Of a DNA stretch of 64,000 nucleotides, positions 26,528 to 41,933 are shown in pieces (position 1 is the first letter of the stretch; every line of letters begins with the position of its first letter). The translations under genes and the position numbers were made by a program. The notes under the pieces are model-generated. The model worked only from the letters and a program-made list of their open reading frames with translations. It did no database searches and was not told the DNA's origin. This DNA comes from Pseudovirgaria hyperparasitica (taxonomy: Eukaryota). The stretch lies in NCBI GenBank assembly GCA_010093815.1, contig ML996567.1; one strand, given 5' to 3'.

Positions 26528-28554
26528 TTACATCCGCCAGCGACCTTCCTCCCCACCACCACCACCACTACCATTACTACCATTACTCTCCCTCTCCCTC
26601 TCCCTCTCCTCCATCTCCACTACGTCCTCCTCCCCCACGCCCACGCCCGACCGCGCACTCGCCGCCATACTATCATACGCCACCACCTCCACAGGCTCCT
26701 GCTCACCATACATATACGGCGGAATGAAATTCCCCCACAAGCTCGCCCACACGCGCACCCTGCACCCGCGCCGCGCCATACTCTCGCCAAACGAGCGCGT
26801 GCCGAGACAGCGACTGGGCGAGCGCCAGAGCAAGGCCACGGCATCCTCGATGGTGTCCACATCCTTGGTGGGCCGCATGTGGATGTCTAGGGCGTAGGGC
26901 ATGGGGGTGGGCATGGCCGTATCGGAGCCGAAACGGGGCGCAGGAAGCCAGGTCGCGAGGTAGCGCTCGAGGATCTGCTCTAGGTATTCGAGGTGGTGCG
27001 TCTGGATGCCGGAGAGGGCGAGGGCGCGGAGACGGGGCGGGTGGGCTTCGGCCTGGAGGTAGCGGTGGAGGAAGGATGCGGGGCCGATGACGAGGGTGTG
27101 GAGGGACGGGAGGGCATTGCGGAAGGAGGAGGGGGTGGCGGCGGAGTCGAAGATGTGGGGGCTGCCGCCGTCGTGGGAGAGGGAGGTGAGGGCGTGGGAT
27201 TGGAGGGCGAGGGCGGCGAGGAGGGTGGAGAGGGAGCTTGCGAGGAGGGGGATCGGGGAGTCGTGGAAGTGGTGTTTGCGTTCGCCGAGGGTGAGGGTTT
27301 GGAGGGCGCGGGGGAGGCGGAGGGTGGTGAGGAGGGCTGGGGCCGAGATGTTGCATTCGTCGAAGATGAGGGTGCGGAGGGAGGTGGTGTGGTTGGGGGT
27401 TGTTGTGGTGGTTGTTGATGGGTCTGGGGTGAAGTCGAGGCAGGAGAGTTTGATGGTTTCGAGGGTGGGGTGGTGGAAGACGGAGTGGTCTGGGAAGGCG
27501 TATTTGGCGTTGCCGAGGCCGTGGGAGTGGTATGTGACTGTTGGGGGGAATGGTATGTTAGGGCTGTGGTACTTGGGATTCACTTTGCTTTTGCTTACAG
27601 GACTTGAGGAATGCGAGGCTTCGATGTGCGGGATCGCGGAGAAGAGTGGCATTGCGGAAGAGATCCGTGACGTCGATGCGGCCCTTCTCGGCCCACTCGC
27701 GCTGGCCCTCGAGATGGGGCCGCCACTGGATGTCGTTGCAGCAGGGCGTCTCGATGAAGAGATGGCGGAGATGCTTCATTTCTCGGATCCTGGGATTGAT
27801 GTCTTCGATTCCGTCCTGGTCTTCGGCCAGGTAGCGGATGGCTAGACGGCGGATGTTTCGAGTCCGGATCGGGTTGTTGGCTAGGTCTCTGTTCATGCGG
27901 CGCGCGGCCTGGCCGGTGCGGATCAGGACGTCGCGATAGATGTGTTCTTGGGCGAACTTGCGCAGGCGGGTGCACGTGTTGCTGGCATTGAGTAGAGTGT
28001 TTCTCTCGTCGATGAGATCGAAGATGTGGATCAGGATCTCCGAGGGCAGGGTCAACAGAGCCGACTGCTCGTTATTATCATTTGGCATTATGGTGGAGTT
28101 TAGGTGTTGTTGTGGAGTGGAGGAAGCATGAAGTGAAGGAGCGGTGGTCTGGAACGTATTACCCTCGTTGCGGGGTTAGCGGGGCTAAGAAAGGGGGGGG
28201 GCTAGAGTGACTGGGTAAAAGGGGGGGGAGGGGGGTTGTAAATGCAATAAATGTGTAAGTGAATGCGATGCAATAATGCACGCGAGCTGAGCGTGAAAGA
28301 TGGGGCAAATCGTCTCCCAGCGTGGTGTCTGTACTTACACCGTCTTTACCATCCCCGTCTGCCATCGGAGGCAGACTCGGAGCAGCAGTATCAGCGTTCC
28401 GACTGCAGTCGGACGTGCCTCGGACTTTTGCTTCCGCTGATAGGGCTGATGATGCAGGGGCGGCATCGGAGTCGGAGGTGCTCTGGACTTGCCGGTCAAT
28501 ATCTACGTCTGGAAAGATGGTCCTCAGTGCAGCCTGTGATAGAAAGATGGGCAT
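26528..28554 (-). CDS. F-box/LRR-like protein (exons 28554-28339, 28148-27599, 27537-26528)
   Basis: LLTLPSEILIHIF F-box followed by LxxL repeats, ending FIPPYMYGE. Both introns have a GTAAG donor and a CTAAC branch point and keep the frame. The first exon is less certain. Confidence 0.75.
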
Positions 28555-28593
28555 CTTTGGGAATGTACGTCTCACAGCACAGGTGATTTCTTT

Positions 28594-28634
<41 letters not shown>

Positions 28635-29102
28635 TTGGAGTGTGCGAGTGAGACTTTAGGTGTAGGGTAGTTAGTAATAGTAGGGAGCCACTAACCGCGC
28701 GGGCATACAGTGCGCACCATTCCCATAGTGACAACAAAAAGGCTGGGAGGCCAGTAGTTAGCCGTCCGAACTCTTCCGTGAGAACCAGAAAAAAGACAGT
28801 ATACCATGAGCTGCAGGAGGTTCATGGCGTCGGAAGACAGCTGATTCACTGACTCCCCCCCAAACCTCTATCGAGTCCAGCAATGTGGTTTCTTGCTAAT
28901 TTCATTGCTTATACTGTAACGATGGCGACTGACTTGTCCCGTGGATGGTCACTCATGATTAGGTACTTAATGTAGAAGATAAGATTATAGACTTGATTGT
29001 GTTGAATTGATCATTGTAAGACTAAGAGAGAGAGAGAGAGTCTCAAGTGAGCTATTTAATGTCTCAACCACTAGTCCTAATCTAGTAATTATGACTACTT
29101 AT

Positions 29103-29699
29103 CTAACATGGATACCATTTAGCTTCTGAAACACCATACTTTACGCGCCATTTACCAATATCGAAAGAACCGGCTTTGTCACCACATGACTCCTTGATTG
29201 CGGCGTGAATGGCTATGAGATCGCTGAGGTGTACAGTCTGCCTGTAGCCGCTATTGCATCCATAGGCCATGACAGAGCCATTATCTGATTTCATAAACCT
29301 GTCGAAGGACAGCTCACCATTTGTGGTATTTATAACCTCAGTGAAAGCCCCTGCGAGAGCCTTCTCATAGTCTTCTTGAGCTAACTTCTCGTCTGTACAT
29401 GTAGGTTTTATAGTTTCCAGATACGTCGGTAGTTTAATACGGTCAAACCCATGTATGACTTCAGCCCAAATCTGGTCCCAGACGTTGTAATATCCGGCTT
29501 GATAGTATATTTTTCTCCATTGGACTGGACTTTTGCGTTCTGGGTCTTCGAGTAGAGTTTTAATCTCCTTTATAACTGGTAGAGTGATAGTTTCTCGTAT
29601 CATGTCTGGGTCGGTTTCCGGAAACGGGCGTCTTCGATCGGCGATGACTAGGCTAGTAGTAGCTGCTACTATCGTAATGAGGGTTTTTGAGAAATGCAT
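29103..29699 (-). CDS. Small secreted protein, effector candidate (198 aa, 4 Cys, intronless)
   Basis: Signal-peptide-like MHFSKTLITIVAATTSLVIA, a TATAA about 30 nt upstream, and AT-rich codon usage. Confidence 0.75.
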   Translation of the reverse strand: MHFSKTLITIVAATTSLVIADRRRPFPETDPDMIRETITLPVIKEIKTLLEDPERKSPVQWRKIYYQAGYYNVWDQIWAEVIHGFDRIKLPTYLETIKPTCTDEKLAQEDYEKALAGAFTEVINTTNGELSFDRFMKSDNGSVMAYGCNSGYRQTVHLSDLIAIHAAIKESCGDKAGSFDIGKWRVKYGVSEAKWYPC

Positions 29700-30012
29700 A
29701 GTAGAGTGTTGTAGGTAGATGCACTTATAAATGGAGTTTACGGGAACTCGAAGATAATTTATAAATCTCACCCATGGTCGCGAAATTACTAGTTTCATTC
29801 TATCTTTCCATGATTCGCGCAGGTATTATAGGAGTAGCATAATGTCTCATTAACAAGGTCATTAATGAGGCATTTTTTAAAGAAATCCCGAAAATAGAAT
29901 TAATCTGAAACGTCCATCCATATACTGGCTTCGTGATAGCTATAAATTTTAGTGCACGCCACAGACAGTAAAATCTTATAAGTCAATCCTTGTCCAACGC
30001 CGATTAGTCCAT

Positions 30013-30101
30013 CATCCTCCACGCCTTTATCGTTATTTTACCTAATATAGTCACTCATCCTCCACGCCTTCATCGTTACTTTACCTAATATAGTCCCTCA
30101 T
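30013..30101. repeat. Tandem duplication of a 43-bp unit
   Basis: catcctccacgcctttatcgttattttacctaatatagtcact followed by catcctccacgccttcatcgttactttacctaatatagtccct. Confidence 0.95.
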
Positions 30102-30883
30102 TCTGCACCGCGATATTAAAGATGGTGTTCATTGTAGGTATCTCGTCATTGGTATCCCTTCATCGTACTCGGCGCAACTATTCTATACCGATCGTAGCAC
30201 TTTGGTCCTGCGTGGATTTACTCTGGTGTCTGCGGTCAGAATGAACCACCCGCAGTAATCCCCTCCTCATGATATGACTCTACTTGAAGGAGCCATATTC
30301 CTCTCCATAGCCTATGAAGATCATTGCAGCTGTGGCACATGACCATTCTTCGTTCGAGATTTACGACCAGACGGGAAATGATACAGATCAAGACCCACTG
30401 TGAACAGTGCAATGCATGCACCACGTCCAGGACGTGAAAGAGCCCAATTCACTTCAGGCGATGTTTTTGATATCTACACAACATTCTGTTCATGCCATTG
30501 TGAATCTGAATCACCAAAATCCTTGCAGGTAACAAGACTGGCATGACAATCGCCGTTATGCAGTCGCAACAGTCACTGAACTTGAGCCTGTGTAGTAGTT
30601 CGTGCAGACGTAGAATACTTAGTTGGCTCGTTAGAATCACGCATCCCATCAAGATGTGACTTGCCACAAATATCGGTGAATCCGAGTAGCGACCTAGTTT
30701 CTCAAATCACACGTCGATGAATCAACGTGACTATCCCAAGGTAGAGAGATCACTTCTCCCTGGAACTCGATAGGCATCTACAAGTACAAAAGAATAGAGA
30801 AGAGCAAGGATGCATGGAAGCCACTCACCACTTCTTCTACCACTTCCCGATTACCGAAAGAAAACAAGTATCAATCCCAAAAC

Positions 30884-31352
30884 ATGACACCATATCCAAG
30901 CTCAACTCTCGATCTGCAGAACATAACGGCAAGGAAGCAGGATCTCCTCGGTACAATCCCCATCTCCTGTGCCTTTTGTCAGTCGACTAACGAACGTAGA
31001 CCTTGCTTCGCACGTCTTCTACCAACCTAACCACGCAGTCATTCTCGCCCAGACCGAAGGTCCAGACGCACAGTGGATAGCATGGCTTGTGACCACAGCC
31101 GCGCCTCCCGATACCAACCTCATGCTGCCCCTGGCGCGTGGAGCAGGGGGCAATGTCTGGAGGGCGCTTGAGAGTCTGCGGACCGTGCTGCAGGAGGCGT
31201 TGAACAAGTCAATGAAGGGAGGCGCCGTTGGAGTTGCGGTGATGAAGAAAACGGCTCCTTTCTTCTGGAATGATGGTACTACGGTTCATGTGATTCCGGA
31301 CTCTTTCCCTGACATGGTTTTGGCTGTCTCGGATACTACGTCGCAAGCATGA
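30884..31352 (+). CDS. Unknown small-protein family, member A (139 aa; intron 30951-30999)
   Basis: The intron GTACAA...CTAAC...TAG joins MTPYPSSTLDLQNITARKQDLL to DLASHVFYQPNHAVIL. It aligns with members B-D. Confidence 0.8.
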
Positions 31353-32163
31353 ATGACGAATGTGATGGCTTATTTGGCGTGTTCAGTTGCATATAATCGA
31401 TTCTGGTGTTGTGAAATAATGCTTTAGTCCAAGCAGATAGCGCCCGCAGATTCGTGGTGCCAGTGAGCAAGTATCACGGGTGACCTTGAGCTTGATTCCC
31501 TAACTGTTGCCAACCCCGTGTTTATGTCAAGCCGTTTAATATTGTCATCTGCAGTTTGGGCCCCTATCAACCACCAACTGGCACCGCATCCATTGAGAGT
31601 CGCGTTGTACGAATGATGAATGCAGTAAAGCATGGCGTAGAGCGAGCATAACAGGAAACTGGCGCTTTGGTAGTGGTTACCATAGTTTGATACTAAAAGT
31701 TGTTGGATTTTCTAGTAGCTTGATGTTTTTTACTCGAATTGTCGTTTGCGACAGCCCTTGAACCTGGTTCGAACGAGATGCTTGGCATGGTGTTGAGGCG
31801 CAGGCGTCGCCCTGCGGCCTTACTTAGTAAGGCTTAACCCGGGGACAGACGCCATTTCACCCTCACGTTCAAGCCTCGAAGTAGTGACCGCGGCGCCAGC
31901 GCCCTCGATGTCAGCGTGTGATCGCTATATTCTGCATTGCCATCGGCCGCATCCAAGAACGTCTTCCACAGCGGAGTGCTCTTGAGCTGTCCTTCCACCG
32001 TAGCTAATCATGCTACAGCGGATCTGCACGGAATGTTGACAAGCTTTCCTTCACATTATACCTATCAACCACTGAACAACGAGGCAACTTGAAAGACGTG
32101 TCGTGAGACTAATGACATCGCAAGGAAGCACTGACTTCGCACGTCTTCTCTATTGTGCTCACT

Positions 32164-33693
32164 ATGAGTGTTCATACGCGAAGCCTTCTCCAATTTCCCG
32201 CAGGCGATAACTCAACCGACACATTCATTAATGGCGTGCATTACAATCGAACAACCCTTGACTTGTTCAGCTACCAGCTGTATTCGAACGATACGATCTC
32301 GAACGGTTCCAACTGCTTCCTTGTCTTCGACATTTACCACCCTTCGTTGCTGCCAAACGGCTCATGGATAAATGGAACATCATGTTACACCCCATACTAT
32401 GGCATAAGGACAAGAGGATCATTGAGCATCGCATTCGGAACTGCGTTTGGAATAACACTGGTGTTCACGTTGGTAAACCTTCGCAAACATGGACGCATGT
32501 ATCTTCGGGAAGACAAGAGATTTAAGATTATAGGAAGACGTTGGCAGTGGTATTGGATGATCTTTGTCGCGGTATGCGGACTCGTCAGCTGCTTCACAGG
32601 CATTGATGTTGAGCGCTTCTACCTTCAAAGTTTACCAATCGTGCTCCAAAGCTTCTTTTTCGCATTGATGCTTCCTGGGATGCTGGCAGCTGTATGGGAG
32701 GCAGTCAGGCACTGGGGCTCGTTCTCGGAAAGACGAGTGAGCGAGCGGGACCCATATCTCCTCATAGACGATGATAGACGAGCTAAGACTGAGTTCTACT
32801 TTCCCTTGGTGTTCTATGTCTTTGCTTGGCTAAGCTTCTTCCTGGTAATTCCACGGAGTTGGGGCAAGCTGCAGCAACAACGATCGCCTGAACAGCAAGC
32901 CGAAATAGCTGCGCCAAATGCAACAAACATCAGGCTCAAGATCGGTGGCATAATAGCAGCTGTCGCTTGGTCTGTGATTGTCTATTCGCTCTTTCATTCA
33001 GCGCGACACTACAGTACGCGTTCACAGAACCGCATCCCACTCAAGCTTGTTGCTGCCCTTGTCGTACTGGCCATCAGGATAGCATATTCGACTGCTTCGG
33101 CCTACGTATGGGACATCGGTATCTCCAAGTTCGATGGCGATCCGGCATGGCCATTCGCGCTAGGCTATGGCAGCTCTCTCTTACTGCTTGTCATCCTCGA
33201 GATAGCTGGGCTCAGAGACGAAAACGAGGACAAAGTGATCATACAATTGCGCCGAGAAATGGGACGTGCCGTAGATGCTGAGCTTGGATACAAAGCGAAA
33301 CCTTCTTGGTGGAACAAAGCTGCTGCGTCCATGCATCTGAATCACGATGATAGACTAAAAGCTATCACTCGTGAAGCACCAGTTGATAGACAGACTCATT
33401 CAGATCTGTTTGAGGATGTTGAAATGCATGCCTTTGATCCGCCTTCGGAGAATGGGTCGCAATCTGCTGACCATCCGGACCCGTTCAGAGATCCGAGCCT
33501 CACTGGTAGTGTCACACCATCGCATGAGGCGACGCATATGATGCGATCATCATCGAGACCTCGAGGTGTGGCGTCAATAGAAACGATGGATAGCGCTAGT
33601 ACCTCTATCTCGGAGACCACAGGGATGACTGGACAGACTCTTGATAACGATGCTCAACCTAAGAGGGAATATCGAAGTATGTTGGACATATGA
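32164..33693 (+). CDS. Conserved fungal multi-pass membrane protein (DUF2434-like)
   Basis: NGVHYNRTTL...NDTISNGSNC, GRRWQWYW, DVERFYLQSLPI and WEAVRHWGS, with several TM segments. Confidence 0.8.
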   Translation: MSVHTRSLLQFPAGDNSTDTFINGVHYNRTTLDLFSYQLYSNDTISNGSNCFLVFDIYHPSLLPNGSWINGTSCYTPYYGIRTRGSLSIAFGTAFGITLVFTLVNLRKHGRMYLREDKRFKIIGRRWQWYWMIFVAVCGLVSCFTGIDVERFYLQSLPIVLQSFFFALMLPGMLAAVWEAVRHWGSFSERRVSERDPYLLIDDDRRAKTEFYFPLVFYVFAWLSFFLVIPRSWGKLQQQRSPEQQAEIAAPNATNIRLKIGGIIAAVAWSVIVYSLFHSARHYSTRSQNRIPLKLVAALVVLAIRIAYSTASAYVWDIGISKFDGDPAWPFALGYGSSLLLLVILEIAGLRDENEDKVIIQLRREMGRAVDAELGYKAKPSWWNKAAASMHLNHDDRLKAITREAPVDRQTHSDLFEDVEMHAFDPPSENGSQSADHPDPFRDPSLTGSVTPSHEATHMMRSSSRPRGVASIETMDSASTSISETTGMTGQTLDNDAQPKREYRSMLDI

Positions 33694-34021
33694 ATTGTTT
33701 CACGCCCAGATCTATCGAACATTTCTGGTTCACACAAATAAAAATCGTTGTTAATCGTCTATGTACGCCGGAGCTCCTAGCTAAAAGCATTTCTATCCAA
33801 GGTATATCCACCATTTATCTATCCTTTGAAACGTCTATCCTCGTTGTTACATAGTACGACAGTGTCGAGATGCGTTTTTACCTAGACACACGCGCTCGAC
33901 ACTTCCAATTGACTGCCGCAAGACTTCGTCACGGATGTACCGGGCAGCGAATAGTGCCACTGAGCGGCTCGAACGCTTCATCTCTTGCGTTTCTATGGAT
34001 ACCACGCTCATCTTGCACTAT

Positions 34022-35043
34022 TCATCGCAACTCGACATTCTGAGACTGTGCATCGCTGTTGGCGTCACTCTCGACATCCTTCTTTCCTTTCTTGGTGCGG
34101 AACTTGAAGTCACCAGCAGCATAATTGCCCTTGAAGGCGACTCCAGGGTGCAGGCCTGTGAGACATATGACAGCGATACTGATCATTGTGCCCTCAAGCG
34201 CCATGAACAATGGTTCATTGTTCGCCAACTCGCTGTCAAAGCCCTCGAAAAGCTCGGCTACACGATACACGCTTCGGACGAAGATTGTAAGTGTAGCCAC
34301 ACCGAGACCGATCAAGAAGGCTTTCCAGATAAAACTAGACCTCAGCACAGCAAATGCCGGATCCCGTTCGCTGCGGCGCTTATGCGCAGACCACGCGAAG
34401 TCGGCACACAACAGCATGAAGACCAGGAGGGAGACGACTTGCGCAACGAGACCAGCAATCATGATGTTGATGCCCAGATCATTTGACTTCTCGTCATCAG
34501 CAGTCGAAGCAAGAGCACCGCCGAGAGCTTGCAGGACGAGAGATAGGAGGTCACAGGAGACGAAAAGAACGGTGTAGGTACGCGGCTTGAGGCGAGAGAG
34601 AGCGGGCGAATAGATGACAATGATACGGCCGAGGCAGAGGTAGATTGCAGCGGAGAGGAATGCAGGGCCAATGGTGAGGCAAATGAGGTATCTGTGGACT
34701 TGTCAGCACGAATCCGCTGTGACACAAGGGCGGATGAGGCGACTCACAGTAGAAAGTTATCGAACAAGAACGGATTGTTGTGTAGCAAGAGTCGCCCTAC
34801 GTATCCGAGCAACTCGAGTACCAGTCCGAAGACCATGGCGACCATGTAGCCCCATGTTTTATGCTTGATGCCGAAGAATAATTGCAGCAGTAGACAGACA
34901 CCGAATACGATACAGAAGAAGACATTTCCGGCTACGTTTGGGAGATAGTGGAAGCGGGCGATGTCGATTGGGCAGATGTCGAGTGTGCATTGGTCGAGGT
35001 CGGTGATGACCTGCCCGGAGGGTAGAGTGATGGAGTCTGACAT
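34022..35043 (-). CDS. RTA1-like 7-TM membrane protein (intron 34692-34747)
   Basis: YLPNVAGN, LELLGYVGR, CLTIGPAF and RSVYRVAELFEGF...NNE...LEG...HPG. Confidence 0.9.
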
Positions 35044-36664
35044 TATCGCCGGTGCTGGAGCTCAAAATTCGCAAACAAAATATCGGAATGAATACCCAAT
35101 GGCTCCTGAAGTATATATCTAGTCGAAGAGGCGAAGAGTCAATGACGTGGTGAGATGGTAAGATGAGATGCTGATTCGAATCTCGAAGTCCCACGTCCAT
35201 TCTCTTATACGAACACACATTCTCAGCCGTTAAGCTGAGGTACGGGCAAACCAGACCTCCGACCCCATAACATCCCAAAACGCGCCTAGCACTATTGTTG
35301 CAATGCGTAATATTCCAACAGAGTGAGACTGCGCCCACTAGCCATTGTCCTCTCACCGAACCGGTCAAGCCGTATCGGGTCGGACATATATACACGCTGA
35401 TTGGCTGTACACTTTCACAACTGCTCGTAAACAGCCTAGCTCCCCCATCAGAGCACATCTCCGTTCACGACGTCACGTGTAGTAAGCGAAAAATCAACGA
35501 TGCACTGCCTCACTAGTCGGACACGGGCGCGGTATACTTCTCGATCGGTATCATCACTTCTCACTTTATAACGGCCGGGGTGGGAGTTGCGCCGGCCCGG
35601 ACTCTTGTCACATACCACATACCGGGCCCTCGTCGTCTCTCCTTGCTTCAGGCAGCAAGCCACAAGGATCATCGGTGTCATTTTTAGAATCCTCTCTCGC
35701 ATATTGCGCTGCTTGAAGGCCTAGCGTGCTCACGATATGCCCTGGTGGTTGGCGGCACGATACTTCTTGGCAAGCCCTTCGATCCTTTGACGCGTGTGCA
35801 GCAATGGTTGAATGTACCCAGTGGAATGAATGGAAGCTTAATCTGCCGGACACGGAGCTTGAGATTCGGATCGTGGGCCGCCATTGATGCAAGGCTGAGT
35901 TTTGGGGCTGGTGCTGCTGCTCCTGATCCTAGGACTTCTATGGTGCTCAAGTTGGTTGTTTCGTTCATGGACACGTGATATAAGCGAGATGTCGGAGGTT
36001 TTTTTTGGAGGGTCGGGTATAATATGTACAGCCTACAGGATCATCTGAATGGGTTGAAGCCTCTGTTGGCTCGTATTGAAGTCAATTTGTTCCGCAAGCG
36101 TTGCCTCTTTTGGGCATAATTCGGGCGGAGGACTCGTGGAGTTATAGTGCCTACGTGTTCCTTGGCAACGGCCCCCGTATACCTAGACTATGGATATTTT
36201 CCCATGCTTGACTATCGTTCCATTTATCAGTTTGGCCTTGCCACTAACGCTCGTTCGCGCTGGTGATATAGTTGTTCGAGCAGCTTCGTACGGTTTGAGT
36301 GTCTGACGATAGTTCAATCTGGACGTTCCGCAATGCAGGCACTCGATCTGTAGACGTTCAACAGTACAATGCGTACATACAGGCAAGATTGCTTCCGTTT
36401 CAACCGTATTCTTCTGGCTTTGCGTGTCAGCAGCATACTACTGACTGGATTTCAAAAATACGGGGCTGGGCGTTGTCGACTAAATCTACCTTCGAAGCTG
36501 CAAAACTGTCCCAGAAGTGTATACACCGATAGTGCGTCGGTCTGGAAACTCACCAGTTCCTATGTTAATACGTCGTCGGTCCGTCCGTCGCTTTGGTTCT
36601 CGATATAACACTAGTCAACAAGCTGATGTACCAACGATTGCCAGCTATTATCAGATGAATGTTT

Positions 36665-36797
36665 TCAATCTCAATCTTAATCTTATTCTCATTCTCAAAC
36701 TCATTCTCATTCTCATTCTCATTCTCATTTCCATTCTCGTTCTCGTTCTCATTCTTAAGCTCATCTTCATTTCCAGTCTCGTCCTCATTCTCATTCT
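36665..36797. repeat. Degenerate (ATTCTC)n hexamer microsatellite
   Basis: Seen directly. It produces the spurious ILILIL, ENENEN and MRMRMR ORFs. Confidence 0.9.
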
Positions 36798-36875
36798 CGT
36801 CGCACTCATTATTTTGATACAGCTGAAACCGAAACCGCCCGCACACCTGTGTTCCCATCTCAAGGACTTTGCATC

Positions 36876-37784
36876 TCAACTACCTTGTACGCCCCTCAAA
36901 TCGATCTTCATAATCACCTGGTCCTTGACCTTCCCATCACTGGACAAGGCGCCGACATGACCGTTGATGAAGCCCTGCATATGCTCTGCCAGTACCTCCA
37001 ACGCACCCTGAAAGTGCCAGCATCCGGTCGCCCCCGTGATCACCTTGTAGCTCGTACTTTTCTCCGGCGTGTCGTCGTGGGAGATCAGGTGTGCGCAGTG
37101 CTGGCTAGGGCCATGGCACGTCAGCATCACCTCTGGATTCACCAACGTCCACACCGCATGGGCGTTCTCTAGAGAAGGAGGACACTTCGTTAGCGGCAGG
37201 CTAGCAGGGACCAGCTCGGGTGCTGAGCTAGGGATAGGGAGGGGGCCGTTCTGGAGGGGGGGCGGGGGGGCAAATAGCGTAGGTACCGATGATGTTGCGT
37301 TTGAGCGACGCTTCGTAGTCGAGGTTGCGCTGGGCGAAGAATGGCGTGCGGTCGAATGGGTAGATCAATGTGCGCGGTGGGCCATACGCGCCCGCCGGCG
37401 GAGGCGGCGAATTGGCCGTGTGTGGATCGGACATGGGCTGGGGCTCTTAATGTCAATCGGGTAGCTAGCTAGGCAGTATGTAGCAGCAAGCCTCATACTA
37501 GTCGGAAGAAGAACAAGAAGAAGAGGTGGTGGGTTCGCGATACTTACGTGGTGGGCGATGATCGTGTACGGTTGAGGGGTGGATGGGTCGGGTGTGGCCT
37601 GTGGGCTCATGCTGTCGGTGGCTTGACGGGGAGAACTGGAGATGATGTGCTGCTGTTGGAGAGTCTCTTTGTCGGCAGAGCCATTTTGAGGTTCGTGTGT
37701 TTGTGTCACGGACGGTTCGTCTGAGGTTTTGTGGGCCGGACAGGGTTGGTGATTGGCATGTGTGCTGGTCTGCTGTACAGGCAT
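36876..37784 (-). CDS. Unknown small-protein family, member B (exons 37784-37548, 37437-37287, 37168-36876; alternative start at 37434)
   Basis: The intron 37169-37286 (GTACCT...GCTAAC...TAG) gives LKRNIIENAHAVWTLVNPEVML. An upstream phase-0 intron at 37438-37547 adds a disordered N-terminus. Confidence 0.8.
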
Positions 37785-37963
37785 TATCCCGGACGCTACA
37801 AGGTGATTCCACGTGGTGATCGTAGGCTATATTACCACATCCATATTCACTTTAATCCTAATGTTCAACGAGCTATCGAGGAAGTGGTCAACCGTGAGTG
37901 AAGTGGCATTGGCTGAGTATAAAGCAGCTACCAAGTCTTCTGTAATACTTTGCGGGTTCCAGA

Positions 37964-38434
37964 TTAAGAAGACTGGTCTCCCGACTGGGATAGGGAAGTT
38001 GGGACTCTATATGACCCCCACAGCATGGCAATTGCATCAGCATGACTGTCGTTCTTGTCGCCTCTCTCGTGGTATCTGATATCCTCGCCTATCATGTTGT
38101 CGTAGATGGTGTCTACTGCATGCTGAATTTGCTCGAGCAGAGAGGCCAGAGCGGCTTCTTCACTGGCGGCCATACTGGGTGGGAGAATGAACATGTAGGT
38201 AGACTGCGATCGTGGATTGTCATGACCAGTCAGGTAAGCGCTGAACAGTGGTTCTCCCTTTTTACTACGCCCAACTACGATGGCAGGGTTAAGAATTATC
38301 AGGATGGCAGACGCCTGATCTATATGGGTCAGCACTGGATAGTCCGATCGATGGTAGTGGCTAAACAGCTTACCAAGAATCTTGTCCTTCAGAAGCTTTT
38401 GCATCTGCAGCTCCTCGAGTTCTGTCATGGTCAT
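37964..38434 (-). CDS. Unknown small-protein family, member C (138 aa; intron 38320-38373)
   Basis: Removing the in-frame intron GTAAGC...GCTGAC...TAG gives LKDKILDQASAILIILNPAIVV. Confidence 0.8.
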   Translation of the reverse strand: MTMTELEELQMQKLLKDKILGKLFSHYHRSDYPVLTHIDQASAILIILNPAIVVGRSKKGEPLFSAYLTGHDNPRSQSTYMFILPPSMAASEEAALASLLEQIQHAVDTIYDNMIGEDIRYHERGDKNDSHADAIAMLWGSYRVPTSLSQSGDQSS

Positions 38435-39419
38435 GTTACCGGACCGGGATTCCGACCTGTCGTTGATGGTCTAGATACCGGTATCAAGTCACTATTTCTT
38501 GTCATGGCTCGTAGCTCACACTCACATCGATATGATTGTCGTCTTAGTATCCTCGAGAAGTGCAAGGCGTAAAGTAGCTGAGAGATATTAGCAGAAGTAG
38601 CAGAGTTGCCCAAAACTCTTGTCTCGAGATTGTACATGAGGTGAGGTAGACATGAGGTTCAAGCAAGCGTACTAACAGAAGCAAAGAGTCACAGAACACC
38701 GAAATAGCAGGCATGATTCACTTTTGAATCAGGCCAAACCTCATCAGAAAAGCTCAGCTTGAACAAGATTGACTAACCGAGTGAACAGTTACATTATGGT
38801 AATGAGTAACAGTGTCCTAGCAAAATGCTTCCATTCATGTTAGGTGTATATCTTAAGTTGGCAAAGTACCAGAGATCGCACGCGCAGTCAATAGTGGCAG
38901 TAGGCAAATTCTCACATCTTATGACTACTTCACAACGTGATCGTCGTGGTGACTTCGCTCTTTTGGACTATTATATATCGATACAACTCATATACCTTGT
39001 TGGATCAATCAGGGCATCATCATCATCTAATTCTCTCTAGCAGCCGATGGACGTGAAGTCCAGGAAGAGACAACAGGTACACTGTAATATGCTAGGTCGG
39101 CTCTAGTTCACTGAGAGATATGAGGCCACGACCATGAATGGACAAAATAGGAGAAGAAGTAAAGTTGAAATTCTGTACCAGCTCCTGACGAACGTTGCAC
39201 CGCAGTCCTTGGGTTGGGCGCATAGATTGCTGCATTACGGATGTGTATGGATCGCATGCTAACGTCAAGACTTGGTGGAACTGGTTATGGTAGAACATAT
39301 GCCATTCTCGCGTTAAAGGATATTGCACGTGGGAAATCTCCGTATCTGTCAAGCTAGAGAACCTCCAATATTCCTCACCTCCACGTCCAGAGCCTGGTTT
39401 AATATGGTCAGAGTATACG

Positions 39420-39826
39420 CTACTTTGACTCCTGTGTCGTGGTGCGATAGTCTATCTTGCGAATTATAGTTCTATTCAGGTCCTCTTTGGATAGATCTGC
39501 CATTTTGGTATTCAGCGCGGTCTGAACGATCTTCAAGAGCTCCTGTAAAGCGCGATCGAAGTTCAAGCCATAAGCAGTGAGAAGGATCTTGTAGCTCAAC
39601 GATGATGCGGCTGGACCGTCATGCGAGATTATAGAAGCGGCACAACTAACGTGCTTATTGCGAGAAGCACTTTCGCTGACGATGATGGCAGCATGGGGAA
39701 TAGCCCATAGTGCGTAGGCGGTTTCTACATTGGTTAGTATGAGGATGAGACAAACTGCAATAGATCCTCACCTAGAATGTGACGCTTGAGACATTCAAGC
39801 TCGGAGAAAACGTGTGTGCAGCTCAT
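39420..39826 (-). CDS. Unknown small-protein family, member D (119 aa; intron 39725-39771); absent from the ORF track
   Basis: The intron GTGAGG...CTAAC...TAG gives MSCTHVFSELECLKRHILETAYALWAIPHAAIIV...ISHDGP...SYKIL...RALQELL...KIDYR. Confidence 0.82.
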
Positions 39827-41933
39827 GTTGGCGACAAAGAATACGTGCTGTGGTTGATTCGGCTAGTATAATAAGTTATGGCGGTTTCCTTTCGTACCCA
39901 TATCATGTAGGGTGTTAACTTGGTGTCGTGGAGCATGCGGTAAGGATGAGAACTCTTCTCTTCTTTGTCATGTCTACCCATCTTATGCTTCACAAAGTTG
40001 CGCGTGAATCGCACTTTTCACTGATGAAAAGTGCTGCCAACACCCTCGAGAGATTATTCAGACGTCTTTGCAAACACAAGTTGTAATAAGCCCAACAAGA
40101 GACTCAGCAAGTCTCTCTGATGCAAAGAATCTCGAACTTGCGCCACTCTGACACTTGTCCGAAATTCAAGAATTCAGTCCTGTAACATGACTACGAGACA
40201 TGTATAGAAGCATGGATGCAGACCAAGTGCCATTTTGGTAACAGCTACATGTGAATCGCTTTATGAAACAGGGGCCATATATATTGTTGCTGAGACAGCT
40301 TTCGGACCGTAGTGAGGTGAAATCTAATGCATAAGAGCAAAGAACTCAGTCCCAGGGTCCGACATTGTTTATCGGTAGTTCTTTATATATCACAACGAGC
40401 TAGTACACATACCTGATCGACTTGCAGATCGGCTTCTTCCCGGCAGATTCCTCTTATGACACGTGGTAGCATGCATGCGGGTAATCCAAAATGTTTAATT
40501 GATGGATATGTATAGTCCGAACTGTACATTTTAGCACCGAAAGGCCGTCAGTATGAGAGGCTTGCTAGAGAAATACGAGACGCCACATCTGTGTTAGATC
40601 GTCAGCTGAGAGTTGGGACAATGTTGCACTAAAATCTGATAGAGATCTGGATTCTCATGTTCAAGACGAGGTTTGGCTATGCTGTGGTGTGCTGGTCAGC
40701 AAAGCATTATGTTCTGCAGTGTAGACTAGCAACCAGGTCCTGTGTAGAAAGATGTCAAGTGAGAGGCTGAGAAAATATTAAACAAACAGCGTCAAAAGAG
40801 GTGGAACATTTACTTTGACTCTCGTTGCATATATTCCAGCATCACAGTGTATATTTGCACTGTGCTCTTTATGATGAATGGCAACATCAAATCGGTAGAA
40901 GGTGAACAGATGATGTTGAAGCTAGCCAATCTCGGCTTGAGAATAATTAATGCTGTACGATCTTGTCCCAATCAGGAAATTGGGAAGACACGTGATGTTG
41001 TCCCTCCATTTCCCCTCGATCCAAGGGTTGTCATCGGACCGAACCGCATGCAAGACGCAACTGTTCATGCGAAATAAGGACGGGGTATAGAATACGTTGA
41101 CCACGACCGAAATGTTATTCCAAAGACCGCATCGAGCTGGAACTTCCGCAGATTCTGCATCCACGAGTGGAGTCGCATCTTTCTATTCCCTGGATGATGT
41201 GCAGAAGCGAGAAAGCGGCAACCCAGCAGCATCCCCTTGAATACGCCACATTCCCGCAACAAGGAAGTCCATTACAACATCAAAGCTTGAATGCCGGACC
41301 TGCTTACGCGTAGAATGATAGCGGCCTGCCTGTACAGTGTCTTATCAACCCGGTGGTCCATACCTTCGGAATCGGCTTATTTGCCATGTGCCGTGTAGAC
41401 CAGATTCCCAGGCTGCGCAGGTGACCATCCAGGAATCACTACTCGCAAATTGCATCCCCTGCGGACTGTATCTATGGGTGTAACTACAAAACTTTGTGAC
41501 AGATTACATGTTGCCCAGACACCAAGTTCACTTGTGTGTTAGCGCAAAATGAGACGTCTACACTGGCTATGGATGCAATTTTAGCCTTTTCCCGTTCGAT
41601 ATAAGCTTCGACCTTGACTTCGCGGAATGCTAGTAGGATTTTCGCCCATTTTTGGTAAATTAATGATATGCGCCGCACGGGAGACATTCCTCAAGGCCGA
41701 TGACGGGACCGTAAACCTGGCAATTGATATACCCTGATCAACGGTCAGCTTGCCTGACTTGTTACGCAGTTTCGTACCGCGAATACGGTCTGCCAGTCAC
41801 TTGGCTAGTGACACCACCCATACTGTAGCAGCTCAAAACTAGAGACTGCCCGCATGGCTTCTAGTCTTAGCGTTGTTGACCTCTTGGATTTAGCTCAATC
41901 GACCTCATCGCACGCGCATCTATATCGCGCAAG

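Follow-up and report, generated by a model that had tools for sequence, protein, structure and literature searches.

The window considered here, a 64,000-nucleotide stretch of contig ML996567.1 from the fungus Pseudovirgaria hyperparasitica (assembly GCA_010093815.1), raises the question whether four small genes lying between its positions 30,884 and 39,826, here called A to D, descend from one ancestor, and what kind of protein they encode. An earlier note on this DNA had described them as an unrecognised family whose members each carry a phase-1 intron at the same aligned acidic codon. Our analysis indicates that A to D are in all likelihood four paralogous protein-coding genes, forming a lineage-restricted orphan family of small soluble proteins. 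The reality of the family is highly probable; any specific function proposed for it is decidedly doubtful.

B, C and D stand in tandem on the minus strand, and A lies inverted 5.5 kb off, past two unrelated genes. The models below are given with the evidence for each part; X1 and X2 denote two public sequencing runs whose contigs serve as transcript evidence, aa stands for amino acids and nt for nucleotides.

30884..30950, plus strand: exon 1 of gene A, 22 codons and one base, encoding a predicted N-terminal helix
30951..30999, plus strand: intron of gene A, 49 nt, phase 1, codon split G/AC, GTACAA..CTAAC..TAG, predicted from the sequence
31000..31352, plus strand: exon 2 of gene A; the spliced product has 139 aa
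36876..37168, minus strand: last exon of gene B, encoding the conserved domain, joined to 37287 in X1 and X2 contigs
37169..37286, minus strand: family intron of gene B, 118 nt, phase 1, codon split G/AG, with a joint in X1 and X2
37287..37434, minus strand: exon of gene B that precedes the family intron, starting with the ATG at 37434 (146-aa form), covered by X1 and X2 contigs
37964..38319, minus strand: exon 2 of gene C, identical to the public model P0001
38320..38373, minus strand: intron of gene C, 54 nt, phase 1, codon split G/AT; the public model splices the same junction
38374..38434, minus strand: exon 1 of gene C in its 138-aa form
39420..39724, minus strand: exon 2 of gene D, covered by RNA-derived contigs
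39725..39771, minus strand: intron of gene D, 47 nt, phase 1, codon split G/AA, with a joint in X1 and X2
39772..39826, minus strand: exon 1 of gene D; the spliced product has 119 aa

All four introns run from GT to AG, with the branch motif CTAAC in A, B and D and CTGAC in C. The coordinates and junctions of the four phase-1 introns, as well as the peptides quoted earlier for A to D, proved correct. When the spliced proteins were aligned with MAFFT, an input that holds no intron information, the split aspartate or glutamate codons of the four genes fell into a single alignment column in each of four modes. Protein identity between members is 25-32%, and the strength of the pairwise links is graded. 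By blastp, the scores were 47.4 bits for B-D, 36.2 for C-D, 30.0 for B-C, 27.3 for A-D, 22.3 for A-C and 18.9 for A-B, and the Smith-Waterman z values followed the same order (18.4, 12.3, 10.1, 8.9, 4.6 and 3.4). Among 2000 shuffles per pair, none matched the observed Smith-Waterman score for B-D, C-D, B-C or A-D, as compared with 4 for A-C and 19 for A-B. Similarity at the DNA level is lacking, as the earlier note had remarked: blastn between the loci gave a best E value of 0.46, and at 25-32% protein identity the synonymous sites between the paralogs are saturated.

Significance of the profile scores between members had been set beforehand as a test of relatedness, and these scores are significant. 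Hidden Markov models (HMMs) built from three members were run against 1,590 six-frame open reading frames (ORFs) of the window with at least 25 aa, together with the spliced proteins. In four of four cases the omitted member was the top match outside the training set, with 50.2 bits for D, 39.6 for B, 37.0 for C and 22.4 for A (E value 1e-5), the unrelated ORFs having E values above 1. Exon 1 contributes to this signal in gene A, since the spliced protein reached 22.4 bits versus 15.4 for exon 2 alone. Moreover, hhalign of a profile of the B, C and D second exons against exon 2 of A gave an E value of 2.9e-5 and a probability of 73.7% over 69 columns. The shared intron column and the significant similarity together identify A to D as homologues, so that the paralogous family of four proposed earlier is borne out by shuffles, leave-one-out HMMs and hhalign alike. 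Judged by sequence, gene A is a divergent outlier of the family, and is counted as a member because D, the profile and the intron link it to the others. It has T-T-A where B, C and D carry (S/G)-H-D at the end of predicted strand 3, the only conserved polar feature in these three proteins. A fifth member was not found in the window by HMM, the next best match having an E value of 1.

The coding character of the four frames was assessed by a codon table trained on 14 long window ORFs (six with Pfam matches); these score 0.09-0.26 bits per codon. In-frame log-odds amounted to 0.196 for A, 0.174 for B, 0.206 for C and 0.153 for D, and the other five frames of each gene gave at most 0.01, for A negative values throughout. 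As background, 118 window ORFs of 100-170 aa had a mean of -0.004, a standard deviation of 0.099 and a 95th percentile of 0.16. A and C, the two highest of the four, exceed this percentile. The further claim that the genes are "kept under selection" is not supported beyond intact frames and gene-like codon usage.

Are the genes transcribed? The contigs of X1 and X2, which belong to one sample of one study and represent a single strain, probably the sequenced one, were compared with the window over 30800-39900. The kind of library is not on record, and we take the contigs to be derived from complementary DNA because they skip intron-sized GT..AG stretches, one of which lies in a Pfam-supported RTA1 gene. 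Three joints were present, each in one contig per run and all of the form CT..AC on the plus strand, equivalent to GT..AG on the minus strand. The joint 34691>34748 removes a 56-nt GT..AG intron inside the RTA1 gene (34692-34747, minus strand). The joint 37168>37287 skips 118 nt, exactly the intron of gene B, and the joint 39724>39772 skips 47 nt, exactly the intron of gene D; both occur in X1 and X2. Since these joints coincide with the predicted introns, genes B and D are transcribed and spliced precisely as predicted. Of the four junctions that the earlier note had suggested confirming by RNA, those of B and D are thus confirmed and those of A and C have no RNA confirmation. Over the genes, the X1 and X2 sequences are identical to the window. 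At 35115, one X2 contig has a lone A>T difference 31 bases from its end, probably an assembly-end error. The X1 contig of gene D is 1601 nt long (38946-39900 and beyond), continuing for about 475 nt after the stop codon and, in the upstream direction, for about 690 nt beyond 39900, which reflects either an unusually long leader and trailer or overlapping transcripts merged into one contig. No other ORF of at least 50 aa lies between 39981 and 40871.

The 5′ end of gene B allows two alternative products, of 146 aa with the start codon at 37434 or of 226 aa with the start codon at 37784. Two additional elements belong to the longer form.

37547-37438, minus strand: putative upstream intron of gene B, 110 nt, needed for the 226-aa form
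37784-37548, minus strand: possible upstream exon of gene B, 79 codons, low-complexity

The 226-aa frame stays continuous if 37547-37438 is spliced out, and the possible upstream exon has a codon score of 0.199. An X2 contig is unspliced from 37287 to 37577 and reads through the putative intron, and 37578-37784 has no contig cover in X1 or X2. Of the range 36876-37784 originally given for this gene, the family intron and the last exon have therefore been confirmed, and the extra intron is not borne out by the unspliced X2 contig. The X1 contig ends at 37437, the first base past the putative acceptor; this end point is compatible with mixed isoforms of B and is no evidence for them. Gene C also has a longer version, the public model comprising 164 aa with one further upstream exon in comparison with the 138-aa form. 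Its intron is a stop-free multiple of three, and retention leaves a frame of 156 codons open. Just 3′ of the stop codon of B, a (TCATTC)n hexamer microsatellite of about 22 copies with 76% matches occupies 36665-36798. It lies inside the B transcript contig, 36659-36764 being skipped as a repeat in the contig comparison, and on the minus strand the region contains an Asn/Glu-rich ORF of 97 codons (36565-36858) that is probably non-coding.

Upstream of A, C and D, a second reading frame that begins with ATG runs into the start codon of the gene, its TGA overlapping the ATG in the form ATGA.

30810..30887, plus strand: upstream ORF of gene A, 25 codons, its TGA overlapping the ATG of A
38431..38637, minus strand: upstream ORF of gene C, 68 codons, its TGA overlapping the ATG of C
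39823..39981, minus strand: upstream ORF of gene D, 52 codons, its TGA overlapping the ATG of D

The start context AACATGA is common to the three genes. In the window, 26% of all ATGs have A as the next base, and 58 of 640 ATGA sites (9.1%) carry an upstream ORF of this kind with at least 25 codons. A start-overlapping upstream ORF in three of four genes is unusual, with the caveat that the arrangement was noticed post hoc and that paralogs are not independent. Gene B has another arrangement, an out-of-frame upstream ORF of 43 codons across its ATG. Because the D contigs extend upstream past 39900, the upstream ORF of D is very probably part of the D transcript, its 3′ part (39823-39900) being seen directly. 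The overlap could serve as a candidate device for translational control of A, C and D.

How far does the family reach beyond this locus? An exhaustive HMMER profile search of 1,835,955,588 representative proteins, carried out with no length limit, returned five matches with E values up to 0.001. The best of them (158.9 bits) is gene C itself, P0001, spliced at the same junction; its record calls it a hypothetical protein of Pseudovirgaria hyperparasitica, and its cluster has no other member. The other four matches consist of 3-9 matched stretches each. P0003 and P0005 are internally repetitive sequences and were rejected as relatives; by analogy with them, P0002 (1576 aa) and P0004 (1953 aa), with nine matched stretches each, are presumably repeat artefacts. 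When the exon-2 proteins of D, A and B served as queries in word-indexed protein searches covering 0.55-1.75 times the query length, nothing was found. As these collections return not even the query proteins themselves, A, B and D appear to be missing from the public annotation.

Searches for a characterised family were likewise negative, in agreement with the earlier statement that no named domain is recognisable. In Pfam, the exon-2 proteins of A, B and C had no match at E values up to 10, and D had three sub-threshold chance matches of 13-15 bits. NCBIfam gave no match below an E value of 0.1, and the best hit of the profile search against PDB sequences was an unrelated RNA polymerase subunit (E value 0.33). 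Metagenome scans with D and B produced 556 and 130 pattern matches, respectively, none of which was confirmed by tblastn, and in the searchable literature library neither the locus tag nor an accession of gene C turned up.

In the databases searched, the family of A to D is lineage-restricted, without detectable relatives. Pseudovirgaria hyperparasitica belongs to the Acrospermales, an isolated order of dothideomycetes, and is described as a parasite of rust fungi (PMC7082219; PMC3317363). The paper on 101 Dothideomycetes describes gene prediction as error-prone under 100-150 aa (PMC7082219). Such unreliable prediction of short genes fits the finding that three members were missed in annotation, and it also means that absence from databases is no proof of absence from other fungal genomes.

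The proteins themselves look soluble and non-secreted. The earlier note had seen neither a signal peptide nor a transmembrane segment, and hydropathy agrees with it on both counts. On the Kyte-Doolittle scale with a 19-residue window, only C exceeds 1.6 (1.81 at residues 19-37), and this hydrophobic segment aligns with the predicted beta hairpin of the other members. An N-terminal hydrophobic stretch is absent by this hydropathy check, in which 10-residue windows starting within residues 1-20 reach at most 1.7. The best N-terminal window starts at residue 15 or later, and the N-termini are polar or charged. Cysteines number 0 to 3 per protein, and the isoelectric point (pI) is 5.4 for A, 6.3 for B and 4.8 for C.

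Structure prediction with AlphaFold2, using only the alignment of the four sequences as input, gave models that tentatively agree on a domain of a helix, a beta-meander and a long helix. For C, with a predicted local distance difference test (pLDDT) value of 54.7, helices were placed at 29-48 and 100-126 and strands at 51-56, 59-64, 72-79, 88-91 and 95-97. For exon 2 of D (pLDDT 66.7, predicted template modelling score 0.57), the strands were 12-19, 25-34 and 44-52, followed by a helix at 55-75. The predicted domain opens with the exon-1 helix and closes with the conserved amphipathic helix. In A, C and D, no other 18-residue window has as high a hydrophobic moment as this last helix, which carries an invariant A-L..L....Q pattern and is followed by a variable tail.

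Do these models point to a known fold, and thereby to a function? Foldseek against the PDB gave no match with an E value up to 0.001 for either model. The top VIA-align match of both models was Rv1738 (4wsp_A) over 58-63 residues, with Z 5.0 and a root-mean-square deviation (rmsd) of 2.5 over 63 residues for C, and Z 6.3, an rmsd of 2.2 and 19% identity over 58 residues for D; by the tool's own bar, a Z below about 8 may mean merely a common arrangement. Chains of double-stranded RNA-binding domains (dsRBDs), of HPF and of the HicB N-domain came next at Z 4-5.7, and an Atlas structure search of C listed HPF and dsrm clusters at template modelling (TM) scores of 0.45-0.52. On the basis of these models, the domain may be described as a small alpha/beta sandwich of dsRBD/HPF type, a description and not an assignment of membership, because the Z values lie below the bar and the Pfam profiles fail to match.

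Taken further, the same matches would make the family a divergent branch of the HPF/YfiA-Rv1738 or dsRBD fold that binds ribosomes or structured RNA, which we consider unlikely. With Rv1738 and HPF (PF02482) the proteins share a predicted small alpha/beta sandwich in which a long C-terminal helix packs on an antiparallel sheet. In contrast to HPF and Rv1738, which are bacterial, the family is fungal and its proteins are not basic, and A to D have neither a Pfam nor a PDB sequence match to HPF. The order of elements in HPF is beta-alpha-beta-beta-beta-alpha, from which the predicted order in A to D (helix, three to four strands, helix) differs. With dsRBDs (PF00035) the family shares the predicted succession of helix, antiparallel strands and helix, the dsRBD chains remaining below the Z bar of about 8. 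A basic helix-2 motif is typical of dsRBDs; it is not seen in the alignment of A to D, and C has an additional predicted N-terminal strand. Neither dsrm nor Ribosomal_S30AE matched the exon-2 proteins in Pfam at E values up to 10. Finally, the pI values of A, C and B lie in the acidic to neutral range, unlike those of typical RNA binders, and the values of A and C in particular set the family apart from dsRBDs. The pI of A, C and B thus argues against a conserved nucleic-acid-binding surface.

The reading that we favour, a family of four paralogous genes for small soluble proteins, would have the following history. One ancestral gene, already containing the phase-1 intron, would have been duplicated at the DNA level, as retroposition would have lost the intron. 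Duplication would have produced the tandem trio B, C and D and the one inverted copy A, and divergence would then have proceeded until the protein core and the intron position alone remained. Each product would be an intracellular single-domain protein of 119-146 aa (B perhaps 226 aa), composed of the amphipathic helix of exon 1, an antiparallel beta-meander of three to four strands, the long amphipathic helix and a variable tail. To judge from the weak models, the domain is most likely a non-catalytic binding module, and the acidity of A and C favours a protein partner over RNA. A possible functional contact is the His-Asp pair with which strand 3 ends in B, C and D and which A no longer has. 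The upstream ORFs across the start codons may reduce translation.

Several observations weigh against this reading. The links A-B and A-C are weak, with 19 and 4 of 2000 shuffles, respectively, reaching the observed score. Gene A has no contig cover in X1 or X2, which says nothing on its expression, and gene C has a single X1 contig (38293-38474, 182 nt, depth 3.1) that is unspliced. The low confidence of the models (pLDDT 54.7 and 66.7) makes both the fold and the binding module tentative. The orphan status was established in protein databases, and relatives in other fungi may be unannotated, since three of the four members are missing from these databases even for this genome. An Atlas feature search with C, moreover, matched unnamed Ascomycota clusters with scores of 0.92 and 0.91, which is a lead only, as compared with scores of at most 0.88 for D. 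These clusters, for which no sequences were returned, may hold distant relatives of C.

Some of these points could be taken to mean that only B and D are real genes and that A in particular, and possibly C, are relics or chance ORFs. Gene A has no RNA cover and has lost the His-Asp pair kept in B, C and D, and C is covered by its depth-3 unspliced contig. Against this stand the intact frames and canonical introns of both genes, their in-frame codon scores (0.196 and 0.206), the top values of the four and above the 95th percentile of 0.16, the contribution of both exons of A to the HMM score, and the existence of a public gene model for C. We regard relics or chance ORFs as improbable.

A bolder version of the family interpretation is that A to D represent a new, fast-evolving intracellular fold-family confined to the Acrospermales, diversified and gated by upstream ORFs, in the service of non-self recognition, immunity or interaction with the rust host. 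The gating would be suggested by the AUGA stop-start, which is kept in A, C and D although the DNA similarity is gone. As a whole, this version is very unlikely.

The genomic surroundings bear on the analogy, drawn in the earlier note, with allorecognition, immunity and antidote loci, in which the paralogs would recognise non-self or neutralise a toxin. Clustered, highly diverged paralogs with intact frames and a lineage-restricted distribution suit such a locus, and an antidote might be seen in weak fold matches to the HicB antitoxin N-domain (Z 4.5-4.6), which lie under the reliable range. However, the window has the character of an ordinary chromosomal region dense in genes. DUF2434 and RTA1-family genes (the latter with a Pfam match on 34022-34702) lie between A and B, and a multicopper oxidase gene just past D. 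The window also contains genes for a Hrd1-type RING ligase, EMG1/Nep1, a 2OG oxygenase, an SMC fragment and a ferric reductase and, further on, Sir2, a pectinesterase, a homocysteine S-methyltransferase, a mitochondrial carrier, a PalB calpain and an oxysterol-binding protein. Pfam scans of A to D and 38 neighbouring ORFs detected no HET, NACHT or related domain, and no sign of a toxin, an incompatibility locus, a transposon island or a secondary-metabolite cluster was seen in the window. Neither the genes nor their neighbours carry a HET, NACHT, toxin or nuclease domain, and ordinary housekeeping genes surround them; the analogy finds no positive support, and a locus of this kind is highly improbable. 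The proposal that A to D are small effectors aimed at the rust host, leaving the cell with no classical signal peptide, finds some appeal in small, clustered, fast-diverging orphan genes of a rust mycoparasite (PMC7082219; PMC3317363) and is scarcely credible in view of the missing N-terminal hydrophobic signal by the hydropathy check and the low cysteine counts (0 to 3).

Some further features of the region were recorded. Between 28000 and 50000 the G+C content per 2-kb window is 0.46-0.52, with values of at most 0.49 in 9 of 11 windows, and the flanks have 0.50-0.60. Nearby ORFs of 200-415 aa at 26528-27775, 28159-28821 and 29103-29825 have no Pfam match. Upstream of gene A, a 43-nt tandem repeat of 2.4 copies with 88% matches lies at 30005-30108.

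The family resembles other orphan small-gene families of fungi in having no homologue outside its lineage and no Pfam domain, in its local duplication and in its short products, which fall within the 100-150 aa range that PMC7082219 calls error-prone for gene prediction. It differs from them in that A to D are very old or fast-evolving (25-32% identity) with one intron position kept, and in that three of the four members are seemingly unannotated although two have spliced transcript contigs.

In summary, three apparently unannotated genes, two of them with transcript support, are added to a public fungal genome, and a protein family is defined for which 1.84 billion representative proteins yielded no detectable relative. 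The locus offers a clean case in which a shared intron position establishes homology where the sequence signal is nearly gone, and it illustrates how annotation can miss proteins shorter than 150 aa. Orphan families of this sort are frequent among fungi, and the immediate significance is modest. If the family is specific to this isolated mycoparasite lineage, it would be a candidate for lineage-specific biology.

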